This document shows positions 7,235-63,539 of a DNA stretch of 64,000 nucleotides, piece after piece. The DNA is from an uncultured Thermoplasmatales archaeon (lineage in GTDB: Archaea > Thermoplasmatota > E2 > UBA202 > DSCA01). The notes under the pieces are model-generated. The model did no database searches. It was given only the letters and a program-made list of their open reading frames with translations, and was not told where the DNA came from. The position numbers and the translations under genes were made by a program. The stretch is taken from positions 96,059-160,058 of the forward strand of contig CAZESS010000002.1 in the NCBI GenBank assembly GCA_964514975.1, in the 5' to 3' direction. Each line of letters starts with the position of its first letter. Position 1 is the stretch's first letter.

Positions 7235-7301
7235 GGGTATTGCATCGACCGGCTGTTTTTAAGGATTGCCCGGAGATGCGTGGTCGCTCCGTGTGGAGAT
7301 G

Positions 7302-7772
7302 TTACCTGCTGGCGGGCAGGATGCAGTCGTAGAAGACCTGGGTCTCGGCGCTGCCGCTGTTGCCGCTGGTGTCCTCAGCGGTGACGGTGAGGGTGTAGAC
7401 GCCGAAGCCGGGGCCGAGGGAGCCCGTCCATTCGAAGGTGTTGTTGCAGGGGACGAAGTAGGCGTCGATGCCGGGCTTGTCGTCGAGTGATACGGTGACG
7501 GTGAGCTCGCTTGGATGGTCGACGTTGTCGACGGCGACGGCGACGCCTGGCCTGAACAAAAATGCGCCCATGGTCATGGTCAGGCCGAATGGATTGCGGA
7601 ACAGCTGGATGCCGGCAAAATGTATGTATCCCTCCTCGGGGCTGAGGATGGTGACGTCCGGCGGCGTGGTGTCGTCGTCCATGGATGCCGCCGTCCCGGC
7701 TGCATGGCCGCCGGCGATGCCGGCTGCGATGAAAAGGATTGCTAGTGCCAGAGCCAATATCCTGTTGTTCAT
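7302..7772 (-). CDS. Secreted hypothetical protein with Ig-like segment
   Basis: Signal peptide; DTTPPDVTILSP...YTLTVTAEDTSGN. Confidence 0.65.
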   Translation of the reverse strand: MNNRILALALAILFIAAGIAGGHAAGTAASMDDDTTPPDVTILSPEEGYIHFAGIQLFRNPFGLTMTMGAFLFRPGVAVAVDNVDHPSELTVTVSLDDKPGIDAYFVPCNNTFEWTGSLGPGFGVYTLTVTAEDTSGNSGSAETQVFYDCILPASR

Positions 7773-56763: not shown

Positions 56764-56852
56764 GGTTTTTCACCTCCTACACTACAATGAAGTTAACAAT
56801 TATAAACCTTTTGCTCGCAATAGGTTTAAATAAACTTCTGTATTCCCTTGTC

Positions 56853-58058
56853 ATGCCAGACACGAGCTCAGAAGTCATAGAAAATTTTGTGACAATGTAT
56901 CCACCCCCAACAGAAAAAGCATACAGGATACACGTATGGAATTTTTTTACAGCAATCGGTAAAGAACCAGAAACATATTTTGATGGAAACCCGGACGTCA
57001 AGCACGACCTTGCCACATTTTTGAAGCACCTGCAGGACGAGGGACGCCCCGGAACAAGCATCAGAACCACGTTGCACGCCGTTAAATCGTTTCTCGTGGA
57101 CTACGAGCATGAACCCTCACGAAAGACATGGAAACGCCTCATGCGGCGAATACAGGGCACACGGCCAGCCACCAAGACCGACGTACCGAAACCACACCAG
57201 CTCAAAGAAATACTCGAACACGGCGACCTCAAAGCACGCGCATTCTACCTCATGCTCAGCAGCTCCGGCATGCGCATCGGCGAAGCACTCCAATTACAAC
57301 TCGACGACATAGACCTCAAATCAGAGCCAACAAAAATAATGCTCCGCAGCGAATACACCAAGACCAGCAACCCACGCATAACATTCATATCAAACGAGGC
57401 AACAGAAGCACTCAAAGTATGGCTCAGACAACGAGACGACTACCTGAAACGAGCAGCCAAAAAAACCAACTTCAAACACAAAAAAGAACTCAACGACCCA
57501 CGCCTATTCCCATTCTCAGACGGCATGATACGAGTAGCATGGAACACAATGCTCAAAAAAGCAGGATACGACGACAAAGACCCCACAACCGGCAGACGCA
57601 AAATAACACCACACGCACTCCGAAAATACTTCCGCACCTACATGAGCACCGAGGTCAGCGAAGACATCGTCGAAACACTCATGGGCCACGAAAAACAACT
57701 CCGACGCATATACGCCAAACACGACGACAACTACCTCGCCCAAGAATACCGAAAAGGAGAACAAAAAATCATCGTCTTCCAAACACCACTCGACCCCAAC
57801 AAAATCAACAAAAAACTCAACAACGTCAAACTCGAAAACTACGAACTACGCAAAGACCTCAACCGAGTCCTCGACCTCCTCGAACAAGAAACCCAACCCA
57901 AACACGGCATACCACCATTCTTCAGACACCCAGACGGCACATGGGAACGAGCCACATTCAACCGAGAACTCGGCGGACTACAACTCACCGGAGACAAATA
58001 CACCGAAGAAGAATACAACCAACTCGTCACCGAAGCAATCAGCAGCCACCAACGCTAA
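56853..58058 (+). CDS. Tyrosine recombinase/integrase
   Basis: SGMRIGE, TKT, HALRKYF, LMGH, IY. Confidence 0.92.
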   Translation: MPDTSSEVIENFVTMYPPPTEKAYRIHVWNFFTAIGKEPETYFDGNPDVKHDLATFLKHLQDEGRPGTSIRTTLHAVKSFLVDYEHEPSRKTWKRLMRRIQGTRPATKTDVPKPHQLKEILEHGDLKARAFYLMLSSSGMRIGEALQLQLDDIDLKSEPTKIMLRSEYTKTSNPRITFISNEATEALKVWLRQRDDYLKRAAKKTNFKHKKELNDPRLFPFSDGMIRVAWNTMLKKAGYDDKDPTTGRRKITPHALRKYFRTYMSTEVSEDIVETLMGHEKQLRRIYAKHDDNYLAQEYRKGEQKIIVFQTPLDPNKINKKLNNVKLENYELRKDLNRVLDLLEQETQPKHGIPPFFRHPDGTWERATFNRELGGLQLTGDKYTEEEYNQLVTEAISSHQR

Positions 58059-58073
58059 ACCACAACCACCCCT

Positions 58074-58271
58074 CTACCTCTTTCTTTTAACAATCACCCT
58101 ACGCCGTAGCTCTTCCCGACGCCTCTTATCATCCAGCCGGGACTGAAATAAAAACGCATCCAATATCGCATTAATCGCCTCCGAGCGAGACATCTGCAAA
58201 TCCCAGCACTCCGCAACCAACGCATCCAACCGCTCAACAACATCCAAATCCAAGTCAACACCCGTCTTCAT
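58074..58271 (-). CDS. Ribbon-helix-helix DNA-binding protein
   Basis: MKTGVDLDLDVVERLDALV....MSRSEAINAIL. Confidence 0.7.
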   Translation of the reverse strand: MKTGVDLDLDVVERLDALVAECWDLQMSRSEAINAILDAFLFQSRLDDKRRREELRRRVIVKRKR

Positions 58272-58399
58272 TTTTCCAGCCATACTATCAACCTGTCGTT
58301 ACCCAGTAACGGAAACAGAGAAACACTACATAACAATTTCCATCACCCAAAAACCAACAAAAACGAGCAAAAAACGGGCCGAAAAAGCACCTTCAAAAC

Positions 58400-58805
58400 A
58401 CCCCTCTCGCCTCTATAAATCTGCAAAGTATCTTGAGAATATCTTGTAACGGCGAGAAGAAACACGCGCTCACGCGCGCGAGAGGGCAGCAAAGCCAAAT
58501 TTCGCTCGTGATCGAAATATGGCAATATGCCATACAAGCACGGACGGGACGCTTGTTAAGCGTCCGTCAAAACATTCCGTGAGCGGATACAGCACGCCGT
58601 TTGGCGTGCGATACCGCGTCGTCATGCCCACGCTGCGAGTATGCTTTACGGCCTTTGGTCTGGCAATTGCCCTGACCTACGGTCCGTAAATTTACCTCAC
58701 AGACGTGCCCAGCCACTCCATGACGGCACTCTGCAAGCTTCCGGGATAGGGGGGCGTCGGCACAGATTGCCCCAGCAATCGCTCGCCTAACGGCGAGGCC
58801 GACAG
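58400..58805. other. Highly structured non-coding segment (candidate ncRNA or single-strand origin)
   Basis: About ten consecutive stem-loops; no convincing ORF. Confidence 0.6.
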
Positions 58806-59031
58806 AAGTATCAATCGTTTATCTATTTTTACAATTTGTTGGTATTCAATTAAGCCAGTACTTCGGAATGTGGAGGAAAAGATGGTAAAAGCTGCGGTTA
58901 AGACACATTCAGCACGTTCTTCGCCTCCTATAGCGCCATCATATACCTCCAAAAAATAGCTAATAAATTATTACTTTCCGAACTACTGTTAAGCTATGTA
59001 ACGTTTAAATATCAGTAGATAATAATGAATC

Positions 59032-59517
59032 ATGCCCAGTAAGATACAAATAAAGGTCGGACACGTTGAAATACTTTTTGAAGGAGAAGAGGAATTTATC
59101 GAAAATAAACTTCTTGATTTTGTTGGTGATATAAAAGAAATTTTTGACATTGAAGAATTGAAACAACCGCCCACTTCAACAACTGAGCCAATGCAAGAAA
59201 CACCAACTATGAAACCGCCCAAATTAACTGTTAATTCAGTTGCTTCAAGATTAGGCGGAGTTGAAGAAGGTGGAGATATAGTTTTAGCGTCAGCAGTAAA
59301 GCTACAAATTATTGATGGGAAGGATAAATTTACTAGAAAAGAAATTCTTGAGGAGATGAAAAAGGCCACTAACTATTATAAACAGAGCTACGGTAGTAAC
59401 CTATCTCACTACCTGCAGCAATTGGTAAAGAATAATAAGCTTAATGAAATCGGAAAAGAGGTTTATGCATTAAGAGCGGGCGCAATTAAGGAATTGAGAA
59501 ATGCACTCACTAAGTAA
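59032..59517 (+). CDS. Hypothetical protein with putative C-terminal wHTH
   Basis: FTRKEILEEMK...NLSHYLQQLVKNNKLNEIGKEVYAL. Confidence 0.7.
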   Translation: MPSKIQIKVGHVEILFEGEEEFIENKLLDFVGDIKEIFDIEELKQPPTSTTEPMQETPTMKPPKLTVNSVASRLGGVEEGGDIVLASAVKLQIIDGKDKFTRKEILEEMKKATNYYKQSYGSNLSHYLQQLVKNNKLNEIGKEVYALRAGAIKELRNALTK

Positions 59518-60271
59518 AGGCGACTTAAAAAAACTTCTGCTCCAGCCCGGATTATCTAAAACTGATAGGATACTCTTAATTCTATCATACAACGATTGCC
59601 CAAAAACCGCCACTCAAGTCAGGAATATAGCTCGAGAAGCTTCTTGCTGGGAGATATCTGAGGACAAGAATGTGGGTGCACTTTTAAGTATGTCAAAAGC
59701 TACTATAAAAACACCAAAAGGATGGGCTCTCACCTCAACTGGGAAAGCTGATGTCTCAGATATGATAGAATCTGTGGGTGCAGATATATTACAACAAAAA
59801 CCAGATAGAATTTCGGAGGTCGAAGATAGCCTCCGGCAACATGCCAAAAAAATCAATGATGATAGAATTGCTGCCTTTGTTGAGGAAGCTATATCATGTT
59901 TCGAGCACTGTAATTATAGAGCAGCTGTCGTATTGTCTTGGGTAGGGACAATTGGACTCTTACACAAAATCGTTGCTGATAATCACCTCCAAGAATTTAA
60001 CTCAGAGGTCATTCGGATAAATTCAAAATGGAAAAAAGCAAAAAATCCAGATGATTTGAGCCGAATGAAAGAGAGTGATTTCTTAGATATATTGCCAAAA
60101 TTATCTATCATCGGTAAAAATGTGAAGAATGAGCTCAAAGGATGTCTCCGATTAAGAAATTCTTGTGGTCATCCTAATTCATTACAAATAAGAGAAAATC
60201 AAGCTGCTGCTCATTTGGAGAATTTGATACTAAATGTATTCGAGCCGATTAGTTCTGGAAAAATAAAATAA
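59501..60271 (+). CDS. wHTH + HEPN-like protein
   Basis: GWALTSTG wing; FVEEAISCF....YRAAVVLSW; LRNSCGHPN (RxxxxH). Confidence 0.7.
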   Translation: MHSLSKGDLKKLLLQPGLSKTDRILLILSYNDCPKTATQVRNIAREASCWEISEDKNVGALLSMSKATIKTPKGWALTSTGKADVSDMIESVGADILQQKPDRISEVEDSLRQHAKKINDDRIAAFVEEAISCFEHCNYRAAVVLSWVGTIGLLHKIVADNHLQEFNSEVIRINSKWKKAKNPDDLSRMKESDFLDILPKLSIIGKNVKNELKGCLRLRNSCGHPNSLQIRENQAAAHLENLILNVFEPISSGKIK

Positions 60272-60394
60272 TTTATTTCCTTGAAAAAGCAAGCCATTAG
60301 AAATATTTAAACAATTAAATACAGTCCACAGTCTATTAACGAGAATGCCCAAAGTTAATATTCAGTCAGCTGTTTCATTAAATGGGAGATAAAA

Positions 60395-60907
60395 ATGAAT
60401 TTTGGACCAGGAATCAGAGTTGGCGCCCAAAATCTGTTTAATCAAGTCGCTAGGCTTGTAGAACATTGGATTCCCACGAAAAAGTATGGCCATGAAACAA
60501 AGTTTTCTAAAGAATTACAGCAATATCTCGATGAAAAATTGAATGAAAGCAGGGGAGGTGGACTAATGTTAGGGCAGCAAGAAGAACATGTAGTCAGTAG
60601 AGAGCATGGCTCTAGCAAAGCGGATGTAGCCGTGGACGGAGTAATAGGGATAGAGTTAAAGAGGAATTTAACAAATAGCCAGAACAAAAAATTAAGAGGA
60701 CAGATAGAAGATTACTTCGACCATTATAACTATGTCATCGTGTGTGCCTGCGGAATAGATGACATGAGTGGCTGGCGGAAACTTAAAAAGAAATACTCCC
60801 AGCCTAGTTTTGGATTATCCCGACAGATTGTTTTTGTTCACAAGAAAAAGGAAAATTATGGCAAAGAACCCCAGCAGGGGAGAGGGTATGGTAGTGGATT
60901 TTTCTGA
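60395..60907 (+). CDS. PD-(D/E)xK nuclease-like protein
   Basis: E..F..EL..YL, KADVAVDGVIGIELK, GQIEDY. Confidence 0.7.
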   Translation: MNFGPGIRVGAQNLFNQVARLVEHWIPTKKYGHETKFSKELQQYLDEKLNESRGGGLMLGQQEEHVVSREHGSSKADVAVDGVIGIELKRNLTNSQNKKLRGQIEDYFDHYNYVIVCACGIDDMSGWRKLKKKYSQPSFGLSRQIVFVHKKKENYGKEPQQGRGYGSGFF

Positions 60908-61137
60908 GTTAACTAGCCTTAACGGCAGATATTTTTGATTTTGCTTAATAGCCGAAACAGCCAATGTTAACATTCAGTTGGCTGGTCGTTAACAAGAGTT
61001 ATATCAAACAATGTTTTTAACAAGAAATCCTTTATGTTAAACCGTTTGCTGGCAGGCCATTTACAATTATAAATTTTTTGCTTGGTGGTCTCCTTTTCCC
61101 TCCCCCCTCACCCACTTAACAATCGACAAAGGTATAT

Positions 61138-61497
61138 ATGCCCGATGTTGATATGTTAGCTAATACCATGGACTCGGACATCACCGCCGGGCTGGCCGGC
61201 AAACGCCTCCTAGTGCTAGCCATATGCGCGGCGCTGCTGTACTGGACCCTAGAGGCAACCTTCGACGCCTTTGTGTTTTCCTCCGATAGCTTTCTCAGGC
61301 AACTGCTCAATCCATCACTACATGAGCTGTGGATGCGGTCGATCGCTATGGCATTCATCGCGGGGCTGGGCATCATCGCACAGGTATACGTCGGGAAGAC
61401 CGGGCGGCTCAACCGGGTGCTCAACGCCCTGCGCGGCGTCAACCCCGGAAGGGACTGGACGGCAGGCTTGACGGCGCCCAGACCGCGGAGCGGATAA
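61138..61497 (+). pseudogene. Truncated membrane sensor N-terminus
   Basis: Two TM helices, then RLNRVLNALRGVN resembling the GAF lead-in HLTKVFHAIRYVN at ~53900; ends soon after. Confidence 0.45.
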
Positions 61498-61899
61498 TGG
61501 CGGTGCACTCCGACGCGGTCATCTGGGGATACACCGCCTGGTATGGCACCGAATGGTCCGAGGAAATGAGCAATGCGGGCATCCAGAAAATCGTGCCGCG
61601 AACAACGTCCTTTCAGGCATTCGCCGGGCAGGTCGAACGGTATCTCAAGCAGCCGCGCCAGCAACCTTCATGACGTTGCCGTCCGGCAAGGAAAAAAAGG
61701 TATCTGATGAAAAGGCGGGAATGGGGGGAGGTTGGGAGGCAAAAAAATGAAATGGTTTTCATTTTTTTTTTGAACCCCATTCCCAGCATCCGATGAATAG
61801 CCAGGAAGTTATAAAAACGTTCCGGTGTCCGCATCGCGTGCGAGGCATGGATAAACCGCAAAGTATTTGGATGAACATGCCATTTACAGGCTGCACAAC

Positions 61900-62019
61900 G
61901 CGGGTGTAGTGTAGTTTGGTATCACATAGCCTTGCCAGGTAACCCTTTCAAAAAGCGTTACATCGCAAAGAAAGGGGCGCAAACAGGCTATTACCCGGGT
62001 TCAAATCCCGGCGCCCGCA
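61900..62019 (+). tRNA. tRNA-Gly: tRNA-Gly(GCC) with a 47-nt intron at 37/38 (61938-61984)
   Basis: GCGGGTG/CGCCCGC acceptor stem; TAGCC TT GCC A|intron|A GGCTA; CCGGG TTCAAAT CCCGG; BHB helix TTGC/GCAA. Confidence 0.93.
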
Positions 62020-62064: not shown

Positions 62065-62616
62065 ATGAGCAAGAAGCAACACGATGGACAGGGTGGACAG
62101 GGGAAGACGGAGACCATCAAGCAGCGGGCCATCTACGTCTATCTGCCATCGCTGGAGATGACCGAGGAATGGAAGCAGCGTGCCAACAAGGCCGGTGTCT
62201 CCATCTCCAAATTTGTCGTGGAACATGTCGAGAATTCGTTGCGGGAGGATGACAGCGACTATACGCCAAGGGGCGAGCTCGTCGAACGTGTCAGGGAGCT
62301 GGAGCAGCACAACAAGGAACTCCAAAAAGACTACGACATCCTCCAAAAAGCCTATGAGCGGCTGGAAGACGAATTGAAGGGCTATCGGCAGCAGCCCTTT
62401 CAGGAGGACGGATACAAGGGACTCCGTCGGTATGACAAGGACCTCATCGACCTGTTCAAGCGGAGACAGTCGGTGAAGAGCGACCATTTGCTCGACCATC
62501 TCGATGTCAGCCCGCAGGACACCGATACCGTCAAGGCCATCCACCGGCAGATCGCGCAGCTGGAAGATTATGGCCTGTTGGAGCCGACAGGGGAGGGATG
62601 GCGATGGAACGGCTAA
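62065..62616 (+). CDS. RHH + coiled-coil + wHTH-like protein coupled to the integrase
   Basis: RAIYVYLPS...WKQRANKAGVSISKFV; heptad region; LEDYGLLEPTGEGWRW. Confidence 0.75.
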   Translation: MSKKQHDGQGGQGKTETIKQRAIYVYLPSLEMTEEWKQRANKAGVSISKFVVEHVENSLREDDSDYTPRGELVERVRELEQHNKELQKDYDILQKAYERLEDELKGYRQQPFQEDGYKGLRRYDKDLIDLFKRRQSVKSDHLLDHLDVSPQDTDTVKAIHRQIAQLEDYGLLEPTGEGWRWNG

Positions 62617-63539
62617 GCCATCAGCAGCTCAGCAAGCACTACCACAAGGACCTGGAGGCCATGAATCTTACCCATGAGACCATCCGCAACTATCATGGCA
62701 TGGTCACCATTTATCTTGACTATCTCGAACGCAATGGCGGCGAGGTCCTGGAGCCCGACCGCGAAACGTTGCTGTCGTTTATCCGGTATCTCCGTGAGGA
62801 GCGGGACAACTGCACGAAACGCGTGAAATACTATTTCACGGCACTCAACAGCTTCTACGATTATCTCGTCTACACCGACAAGACGGACCAGAATCCCGTT
62901 CCGGCTATCCGCAAGCGATATCTCAAGCAATACAAGAGCGATGACGGTCGGCAGGCACAGCGGATGCTGATCAGCGTTCCTGAGATGGCGGGCTATGTCA
63001 CCTCAATTATGAATCCCCGTGACCGCGCGATCGCGGTATTGCTGGCGAAGACAGGGATCCGACGTGGCGAGATGCTCGCCCTCAACATGGACGACATCGA
63101 CTGGGATATTCGGCGTGTGAGGCTGCATCCGACACGGAAGCGGAGCAACCTCCTTGTCTATTTTGACGATGAATGCGCCAGGGTGCTGCAGCGGTGGCTG
63201 CACCTCAGGAGCAAGCTTGATGGTGGCAGCCAGGCGATCTTCCTCAACCAGTACGGCGGCCGCTTGCATCGCAACGGCGTCTACAGGAGCATCGTGAAAT
63301 GGGCGAAAAAATATGGCATCTATGACACAAACTCCGATCGATTAGAGGATCATTTCTCGCCGCATTGTTTCCGTCACTGGTTCACCACGCATTTGTTCCG
63401 CGCGGGGATGTCCCGGGAGTATGTGGCGGAGCTTCGCGGTGACTCGCCCAAGGGCGCCATCGACCTCTACAACCACATCGACCACGAGGACCTGCGGAAG
63501 CAGTACCTGGCGCATATCCCCCAGCTCGGCCTGGAATGA
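62598..63539 (+). CDS. XerA-like tyrosine recombinase/integrase
   Basis: KTGIRRGE, RKRS, SPHCFRHWFTT, LRGD, DLYNH. Confidence 0.92.
   Translation: MAMERLSHQQLSKHYHKDLEAMNLTHETIRNYHGMVTIYLDYLERNGGEVLEPDRETLLSFIRYLREERDNCTKRVKYYFTALNSFYDYLVYTDKTDQNPVPAIRKRYLKQYKSDDGRQAQRMLISVPEMAGYVTSIMNPRDRAIAVLLAKTGIRRGEMLALNMDDIDWDIRRVRLHPTRKRSNLLVYFDDECARVLQRWLHLRSKLDGGSQAIFLNQYGGRLHRNGVYRSIVKWAKKYGIYDTNSDRLEDHFSPHCFRHWFTTHLFRAGMSREYVAELRGDSPKGAIDLYNHIDHEDLRKQYLAHIPQLGLE

Follow-up and report, generated by a model that had tools for sequence, protein, structure and literature searches.

A 64,000-nt stretch of the genome of an uncultured Thermoplasmatales archaeon (assembly GCA_964514975.1, contig CAZESS010000002.1, positions 96,059 to 160,058; hereafter the window) carries a non-coding segment of about 400 nt with a strong modular structure. 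This segment, hereafter the module, is real, is a conserved part of the backbone of a 4.3-kb integrative element, goes with that backbone and not with the cargo genes, and belongs to no described family. The window lies on contig 2 of a host genome (G000) of 1.96 Mb and ~62% GC (guanine plus cytosine). The element consists, in this order, of a tyrosine integrase gene, a gene for a ribbon-helix-helix (RHH)-like protein, the module, a 133-nt repeat resembling a miniature inverted-repeat transposable element (MITE) and an AT-rich, defence-like cargo; an earlier, sequence-only reading of this DNA had placed the segment between the integrase/RHH-like genes and the cargo, and the gene order agrees with it. 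We favour, at a probability of about 0.4, the interpretation that the module is transcribed into a structured RNA of ~400 nt that serves the element, an RNA whose transcription, strand and role we infer.

All stem-loops listed in the sequence-only reading were found in place: the stem TCTCGCC/GGCGAGA (58405-58411 and 58451-58457), the hairpin CGCGC-TCAC-GCGCG (58465-58478), the stem ATTTCG/CGAAAT (58499-58504 and 58513-58518), further hairpins at 58518-58534, 58547-58565, 58583-58617 and 58645-58690, and the terminal three-way junction. The TATAAAT at 58414-58420 and the TTTTT at 58826-58830 that it reported are both present as well. The comparison with shuffled sequence that it had proposed was clear on both strands. 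The minimum free energy of region 58400-58830 is -170.6 kcal/mol on the + strand, where dinucleotide shuffles average -135.6 +/- 5.3 (n = 100 per strand; z = -6.55), and -184.1 kcal/mol on the - strand, where they average -148.3 +/- 6.1 (z = -5.88); on each strand 0 of 100 shuffles were as good. With DNA folding parameters the module reaches -90.6 on the + and -93.6 on the - strand. Folding by parts set the limits of the structured block at ~58401-58806. On the + strand the flanks are unstructured (58284-58400, z = -0.68; 58806-58855, z = -0.76), the structured sub-domains are 58401-58461 (z = -2.8), 58513-58575 (z = -5.0), 58576-58620 (z = -3.1), 58619-58728 (z = -4.8) and 58752-58806 (z = -3.7), and the unstructured parts inside the module are 58462-58512 (z = -1.3) and a linker at 58729-58754 (z = +0.4). 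The claim that the segment is non-coding held, as no open reading frame (ORF) longer than 56 amino acids lies inside the structured block; mechanical ORFs of 64 (58343-58537) and 86 amino acids (58692-58952) overlap its edges, and the 86-aa ORF has no Pfam hit. Its description as GC-rich within AT-rich DNA is right for one side only: the module has 53-54% GC and the cargo to its right ~35%, but the core to its left has 47-50% and the host ~62%.

The block opens with hairpin H1 (58405-58457; z = -2.8 on the + and -3.7 on the - strand), which has 7-bp arms and a loop holding a TATA-like box (58412-58420) and two TATCTTG direct repeats (58429-58435 and 58440-58446). Two long-range closing helices of 8-9 bp then form multibranch domains. 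Domain 1 (58462-58617) is closed by CGCTCACG (58467-58474) and CGTGAGCG (58578-58585) and contains the hairpins 58518-58534 and 58547-58565, followed by hairpin 58583-58617; the z-score of 58462-58610 is -4.8 on the + and -5.6 on the - strand. In domain 2 (58618-58727; z = -4.8 on both strands) the 9-bp closing helix GTCGTCATG/CATGACGGC encloses hairpin 58645-58690, which includes the palindrome GGCAATTGCC. A variable, unpaired linker (58728-58755; z = +0.4) leads to the three-way junction (58756-58803; z = -3.7), GTCGGC-ACA-[GATTGC-CCCA-GCAATC]-G-[CTCGCC-TAAC-GGCGAG]-GCCGAC.

Perfect hairpins (stem of at least 6 bp, loop of 3-10 nt) occupy 105 of 430 nt of the module, with a genome mean of 17.4 +/- 17.8 over 38,580 windows. 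By this measure the module is tied fifth among distinct loci of the genome; when stems of at least 7 bp are required it falls outside the top 8. The top locus is a group I intron and other high loci contain tRNAs. This intron, at L051 2052-2273 (G000:C34 ~7251-7472), matches RF00028 with 75 bits (E = 2e-17).

The limits of the element are given by 23-bp direct repeats, identical at 20 of 23 bases, that bracket the 4.3-kb insertion: an attL-like left repeat, TTAACAATTATAAACCTTTTGCT, at 56793-56815, and an attR-like right repeat, TTTACAATTATAAATTTTTTGCT, at 61060-61082. In the genomes G001, G002 and G003 homology to the window ends at 56813 and the repeat site is single-copy. The right repeat and its flank are also found in a genus-mate, G004. 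There, a stretch of 169 nt matching the 3' part of the module (58639-58807) at ~95% identity precedes a gene of the archaeal pilin type (PF07790), after which the right repeat and flank come. A salt-lake contig of sequencing run X2 covers 58652-58803 at ~95% conservation and then diverges, and in a contig of run X3, an RNA library, the junction is followed by yet another sequence. In these three comparisons (G004, X2 and X3) the conserved block ends at 58803-58805, and together with G000 four different sequences lie 3' of the element junction. As unrelated DNA follows the conserved 3' part in G004, X2 and X3, the module goes with the backbone and not with the cargo. The same finding argues against the suggestion that the segment encodes an RNA antitoxin or cofactor for the HEPN-like and nuclease cargo. 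An antitoxin of the ToxI kind (type III) is also contradicted by the absence of tandem or direct repeats of that kind from 58400-58830 and by the retention of the module while the cargo changes. All eight substitutions that separate the module from the G004 copy fall at unpaired positions of the centroid fold, which is 48% unpaired (chance of 8/8, 0.479^8 ~0.003). Four of the eight lie in the linker, where X2 has also lost 2 nt and X3 differs in sequence.

Searches for relatives of the module returned little beyond these copies. As the sequence-only reading had anticipated in recognising no known family, the module matched none of 4,227 Rfam models (release 15), whether gathering scores or a limit of E<=10 were applied. 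At gathering scores the window gave a single match, a tRNA (61900-62019), and the best weak match near the module was SAM-II (E = 0.81; 18.8 bits against a threshold of 44), which falls inside the MITE-like repeat. The homologues that had been hoped for beside related integrases were not encountered: blastn and nhmmer searches of 39 loci recovered only the G004 copy and copies of the junction, and none of the 29 related integrase loci fetched (32 with four larger stretches) has a similar sequence. At the level of whole genomes, DNA searches covered 61 relatives, 197 members of the class and 401 of the phylum, and yielded no match outside the genus. No module homologue was found in viral contigs, searched by integrase and by DNA pattern, or in metagenome contigs, searched by DNA pattern; genome contigs searched by DNA pattern gave only the G003 copy, and plasmid and phage collections held nothing similar. 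Searching metagenome contigs by integrase gave 10 loci with only 26-28% identity over ~80 residues, which were left aside. In the accessible literature searched, neither an RNA-guided tyrosine recombinase nor this module is described, and the module is likewise missing from the accessible parts of PMC13107129 and 10.1101/2025.02.15.638363.

A look-alike junction was found on G009:C8, after the closest integrase (51% identical), at L061 4390-4438. It is a three-way junction with two tetraloop hairpins and a 15-bp hairpin, in a 49%-GC island within ~700 nt of AT-rich non-coding DNA, between the integrase gene (with a 90-aa gene on the opposite strand) and an ATPase gene. It is the only perfect three-way junction in the integrase loci scanned (32 distinct loci, 133 kb). 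The asymmetry of this junction is mirrored relative to the integrase, the z-score of the region is -2.3, and the model R1 does not match it (0 hits over 32 loci including L013); the look-alike was therefore rejected as a homologue.

The three-way junction is the one part of the module that is found elsewhere in these genomes. Perfect junctions of this form occur only five times in the whole genome, and the 48-nt motif has only five copies over 39 genomes of the order. The copies beyond the element are at G000:C22:14307-14368 (L002/L066 ~3318), G003:C15:20745-20806 (L008/L065 ~1756) and G000:C3:87889-87949 (L088 1503-1563). BLAST missed the last of these, which came to light with a junction covariance model (E = 8.6e-9); the closing stem of this copy reads GTTGGC/GCCAAC where the element has GTCGGC/GCCGAC, so that both sides are changed. 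Loop and junction bases are invariant in 5/5 copies. Acquired or variable DNA has its left edge at every copy, in three separate locations. The junction copy in G003:C15, at the Zn-ribbon gene, is directly followed by a 1.2-kb HepT+MNT pair; at the site shared by G000:C22 and G003:C15, G001 is without the motif and homology resumes just past the 3' end of the motif. The copy on G000:C3 begins 16 nt after a radical-SAM-type gene and precedes a 2.5-kb, 45%-GC cassette with helix-turn-helix (HTH) and ATP-binding cassette (ABC)-transporter genes. Both this cassette and the motif before it are missing from G001, G002 and G003, and the cassette is found in G000 only.

The insertion in G003:C15 relative to G000 (L065 1794-2992, 1.2 kb) encodes a toxin-antitoxin pair in which a HepT-like RNase (PF01934, E = 1e-30) is combined with an MNT nucleotidyltransferase (PF18765, E = 8e-18). 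A palindrome, TGCCGGCAG, or a form of it with one mismatch, was seen near two cassette right edges. We also considered an arrangement in which the cassettes are flanked by two junction copies and rejected it, as a search for a second copy at the right ends of the three cassettes gave nothing significant (p = 0.75, 0.036 at another place, and 0.47). In its position just after stop codons, on the sense strand and at several unrelated loci, the 48-nt junction resembles the short structured repeats known as repetitive extragenic palindromes and bacterial interspersed mosaic elements (REP/BIME). It differs from them in being a three-way junction and not a single palindrome, in having only three copies per genome and in lying at the edges of acquired DNA.

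In the interpretation that we favour, the RNA would combine two multibranch domains with several simple hairpins and carry the three-way junction at one end. Its role, such as control of an integrase/RHH switch or immunity, would lie with the element and not with the cargo. The fold z-scores, the separation of the sub-domains by unstructured flanks and linker, the position of the substitutions off the stems and the linkage to the backbone all argue for a structured RNA. GOLLD, ROOL and HEARO/omega RNA are large structured RNAs linked to mobile elements, and all are Rfam families. The module shares with them a length of several hundred nucleotides, a multi-domain build and a home on prophages or mobile elements, where their function is mostly unknown; unlike them it has no Rfam match and no covariation support, has unusually perfect stems and has been seen in a single genus. 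The bridge/seek RNAs of the insertion sequences IS110/IS1111 differ from the present case in their recombinase, which is of the DEDD type, while the recombinase here is of the tyrosine type (PF00589).

Two transcription units can be proposed. On the + strand, an RNA would start from the divergent promoter/operator region near 58400-58445 and end with the junction and the T5 run. Consistent with this unit, the junction is precisely where the conserved block stops, with the T5 run behind it; on the chromosome, the junction follows the stop codons of two unrelated genes at a distance of 10-16 nt, on the sense strand; one-sided changes in junction copies produce G.U on the + strand in four cases against one A.C (with, in addition, GCTGAC in X3); and in the closing stem of the G000:C3 copy a C-G pair is replaced by U-A, a compensatory change. 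On the - strand, an RNA would start from a motif at 58843-58828, begin with the junction and end in oligo-U tracts at 58398-58349, before the RHH-like gene. This unit is favoured by the tRNA-type promoter motif at the right distance, five oligo-T tracts, more G.U pairs and a GUGA loop on the second hairpin.

Promoters were scored with a weight matrix built from the upstream regions of 35 ARAGORN tRNA genes of this genome. The - strand motif, ACCAACAAATTGTAAA (58828-58843), resembles a promoter with a transcription factor B recognition element (BRE) and a TATA box, points into the module and overlaps the + strand T5 run at 58826-58830. Its score of 13.2 bits would rank near the 75th percentile among the tRNA promoters, and 40 nt separate its start from the edge of the junction, a distance within the 36-46 nt typical before tRNA 5' ends; in the AT-rich cargo a score of this size turns up roughly every 2,000 positions. 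At the other end, right after the last hairpin, four A5-6 runs on the + strand (58349-58386) and an A4 (58395-58398) make up the five oligo-T tracts of the - strand (58349-58398), which may form a multi-tract archaeal terminator for a - strand module transcript; they sit in a stretch with 50% A on the + strand and are partly expected from composition alone. The TATAAAT in the H1 loop is a more convincing TATA box when read on the - strand, as TTTATAGA facing the RHH-like gene, than when read on the + strand, and the TATA-like box and TATCTTG repeats of H1 are more likely the promoter/operator of the RHH-like gene. The predicted promoter and terminator signals thus conflict between strands. Folding energy was rejected as a means of choosing between them, as the 13.5 kcal/mol advantage of the - strand is the difference between the shuffle means, and the sub-domain z-scores are alike on both.

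Several results weigh against an RNA. Both strands fold equally well, the local stems are perfectly Watson-Crick with loops of 3-4 nt and almost no G.U on the + strand (G.U pairs make up 3 of 114 pairs in the + centroid and 8 of 114 in the - centroid), and one stem core is the loop-less palindrome GGCAATTGCC; these features fit DNA dyad symmetry better than typical RNA. Among the five junction copies two pairs are changed on both sides, which is no significant covariation (93 of 500 shuffles reach the score), and for the module body there is no covariation since no diverged homologues exist in the genomes and collections searched. The module matches no Rfam family, and a scan of 8 of 30 loci gave no hint that structured islands generally accompany related integrases, as the minima downstream did not fall below those upstream. 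In run X4, a contig with a 38-nt side has 58461 joined directly to 58751; judging from this single contig, the module may be able to do without its 289-nt interior or to exchange it. The - strand promoter motif is outside the conserved block and has no equivalent in G004, and the tRNA-derived matrix finds no + strand site of at least 8 bits in 58250-58900. Run X3, the sole RNA-library run (oligo-dT, seen as contigs), has relatives of parts of the locus that cannot show transcription or strand, and the parts of the stretch left uncovered by X2-X5 carry no information on expression.

The closest competitor, which we consider possible though less probable than an RNA, is that the module acts in cis as folded DNA, as a single-strand origin and/or a packaging or transfer signal of an element that has a single-stranded phase and takes its proteins from a helper. 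The equal folding of both strands, the perfect Watson-Crick stems with minimal loops and the arrangement of the module as a string of separate hairpins all suit such a role, as does the base composition of the neighbouring core. The 1-kb window 57443-58442 has 71.5% A+C (adenine plus cytosine), the most extreme of 18,931 such windows in the genome; the skew (56900-58400) spans the integrase gene (+), the RHH-like gene (-) and the spacer, and stops at the module. Other strongly skewed regions that were profiled are host-like in GC (47-68%) or runs of N. The skew is an asymmetry at the DNA level and fits a strand that is often single-stranded or one under heavy one-directional transcription. Skew of this kind, read as the mark of a strand that is repeatedly single-stranded, is established for vertebrate mitochondrial DNA and single-stranded DNA phages, and is the pattern expected here if the G+T-rich - strand were repeatedly single-stranded. 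A related element in G107 (L105 1600-6631) is similarly skewed, with 60-70% A+C over at least 5 kb and genes on both strands; five of its six genes lie on the G+T-rich strand.

The intergenic regions of Ff phages and the single-strand origins (sso) of rolling-circle plasmids are non-coding, ~150-500 nt long and built of consecutive hairpins. The module is likewise non-coding with extensive intrastrand pairing in consecutive hairpins, on a small mobile replicon with a strong strand bias. It shares no sequence similarity with them, its host is an archaeon and single-stranded DNA is here a supposition; a nicking initiator and a nick site are known in those systems, but no HUH, Rep_trans or Rep-Arvir protein is encoded by the element (supply by a helper is possible). 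Hairpin origins beside replication genes of archaeal elements are documented for the SNJ2 Rep-Arvir origin (PMC13107129) and the pRN1 stem-loop origin (PMC4234260). Like the module these are hairpin-bearing non-coding DNA in the backbone of an archaeal element, near a small repressor and integrase or replication genes; they consist of one or two hairpins directly downstream of the initiator gene (DUF7845 and ORF904, respectively), whereas the module has about nine stems over 400 nt, no initiator gene and no PF25227 hit. The missing initiator also counts against folded DNA. No replication initiator or nickase was recognised: the five element proteins have no Rep hit in Pfam, including PF25227 (Rep-Arvir), the RHH-like and three cargo proteins have no Rep-type hit in PHROGs, and a scan with NCBIfam likewise gave no initiator. 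No iterons were found, the cargo lacks the A+C skew, heavy - strand transcription might also cause it, the case for a single-stranded phase rests indirectly on the skew of the neighbouring core, and nothing similar occurs in the phage or plasmid collections.

It is rather unlikely that the junction alone is the working part, as a site of recombination or cassette capture used by the integrase, a host recombinase or mere homology, with the upstream hairpins accessory or weakly constrained. That the junction forms the left border of acquired or variable DNA in three different locations, and that its loop and junction bases are invariant, is what such a site would show, and a folded site beside a tyrosine recombinase with exchangeable cassettes downstream recalls integron attC/attI and the folded attP of CTX phage. 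The module nevertheless lacks the R/L box arrangement of integron sites, no copy of the motif stands at any cassette right (3') end, and only five copies exist in the 39 genomes. The attachment (att) repeats of the element differ in sequence from the junction and are AT-rich, the integrase does not belong to the IntI type and scores far under the integron-integrase cut-offs (TIGR02249, 35.2 bits against 265; NF011946, 23.1 against 435), and 350 nt of upstream structure are left unexplained. A composite in which the element is an archaeal integrative satellite with a single-stranded DNA phase, the hairpin array its origin or packaging region and the junction a folded recombination site that captures cassettes, both in the element and at chromosomal gene ends, seems to us a little less probable still. 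Least probable is that the module has no function of its own and consists of chance or decaying palindromes and promoter/operator sites of the RHH-like gene conserved through recent divergence only, a view that draws on the ~95% identity of the sole homologues (so that conservation alone says little), on a hairpin density that is not unique and on H1 as a plausible promoter/operator, but that is opposed by z-scores of about -6 with no shuffle as good on either strand, by the 8/8 substitutions outside stems, by the long-range 8-9-bp helices and by sharp block boundaries common to three sources.

The other parts of the element are as follows. The tyrosine recombinase (56853-58058, + strand, 401 aa) matches Pfam PF00589 (E = 5.2e-19), scores far under the cut-offs of all NCBIfam XerA, XerC and integron-integrase models, and has homologues in 42 of 197 genomes of the class, the best 51% identical. 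The RHH-like gene (58074-58283, - strand, 69 aa) is convergent with the integrase gene, their 3' ends meeting, and leads away from the module. Its product has a weak match to the NikR N-terminus (E = 0.0098), and an AlphaFold2 model shows an extended N-terminus and two helices (predicted local distance difference test, pLDDT, 71). Foldseek with this model gave no match at E<=0.001, NikR, CopG and Rv0298 being among the weak rows. An RHH fold was thus not confirmed by profile, model or structure search, and we keep the label RHH-like. Just upstream of its start codon the palindrome CGTTAC-CCA-GTAACG (58297-58311) is possibly the operator of this gene. The MITE-like repeat (58856-58988; z = -3.9) has 13-nt terminal inverted repeats, CAGTACTTCGGAA and TTCCGAACTACTG, and a second copy, 78% identical, at G000:C1:164687-164818; its high depth and differing flanks in the salt-lake/brine runs X2, X4 and X5 point to many metagenome copies. 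The cargo (59032-60907, + strand, ~35% GC) has three genes (59032-59517, 59501-60271 and 60395-60907), with weak AbiEi-like (E = 1.3e-4) and PD-T7-3-like (E = 1.6e-6) matches in PADLOC and a match to phrog_27609 (E = 6.6e-7).

Between the right repeat and a tRNA gene, 61083-61690 is common to G004 and absent from G001-G003, which have ~370 nt of other sequence between the repeat site and the tRNA; for this reason the G000-specific DNA is less securely delimited on the right than on the left. The 120-nt tRNA gene (61900-62019) was found by Rfam (52.6 bits) and missed by ARAGORN, and presumably contains an intron. After it come a 183-aa gene and a second, XerC/D-like integrase gene (62598-63539), which are probably another integrated element.

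To our knowledge, hardly any mobile elements of uncultured Thermoplasmatota have been described. A role as RNA would make the module a new, large structured RNA linked to an archaeal integrase module; a role as folded DNA would indicate a single-stranded phase and helper dependence in a minimal archaeal integrative element without a known initiator. Either way, a 48-nt junction stands at the left edge of three different acquired cassettes and the strongest skew of the genome lies in the core of the element. The junction and the skew together offer testable handles on the exchange of defence and transport genes among these archaea.

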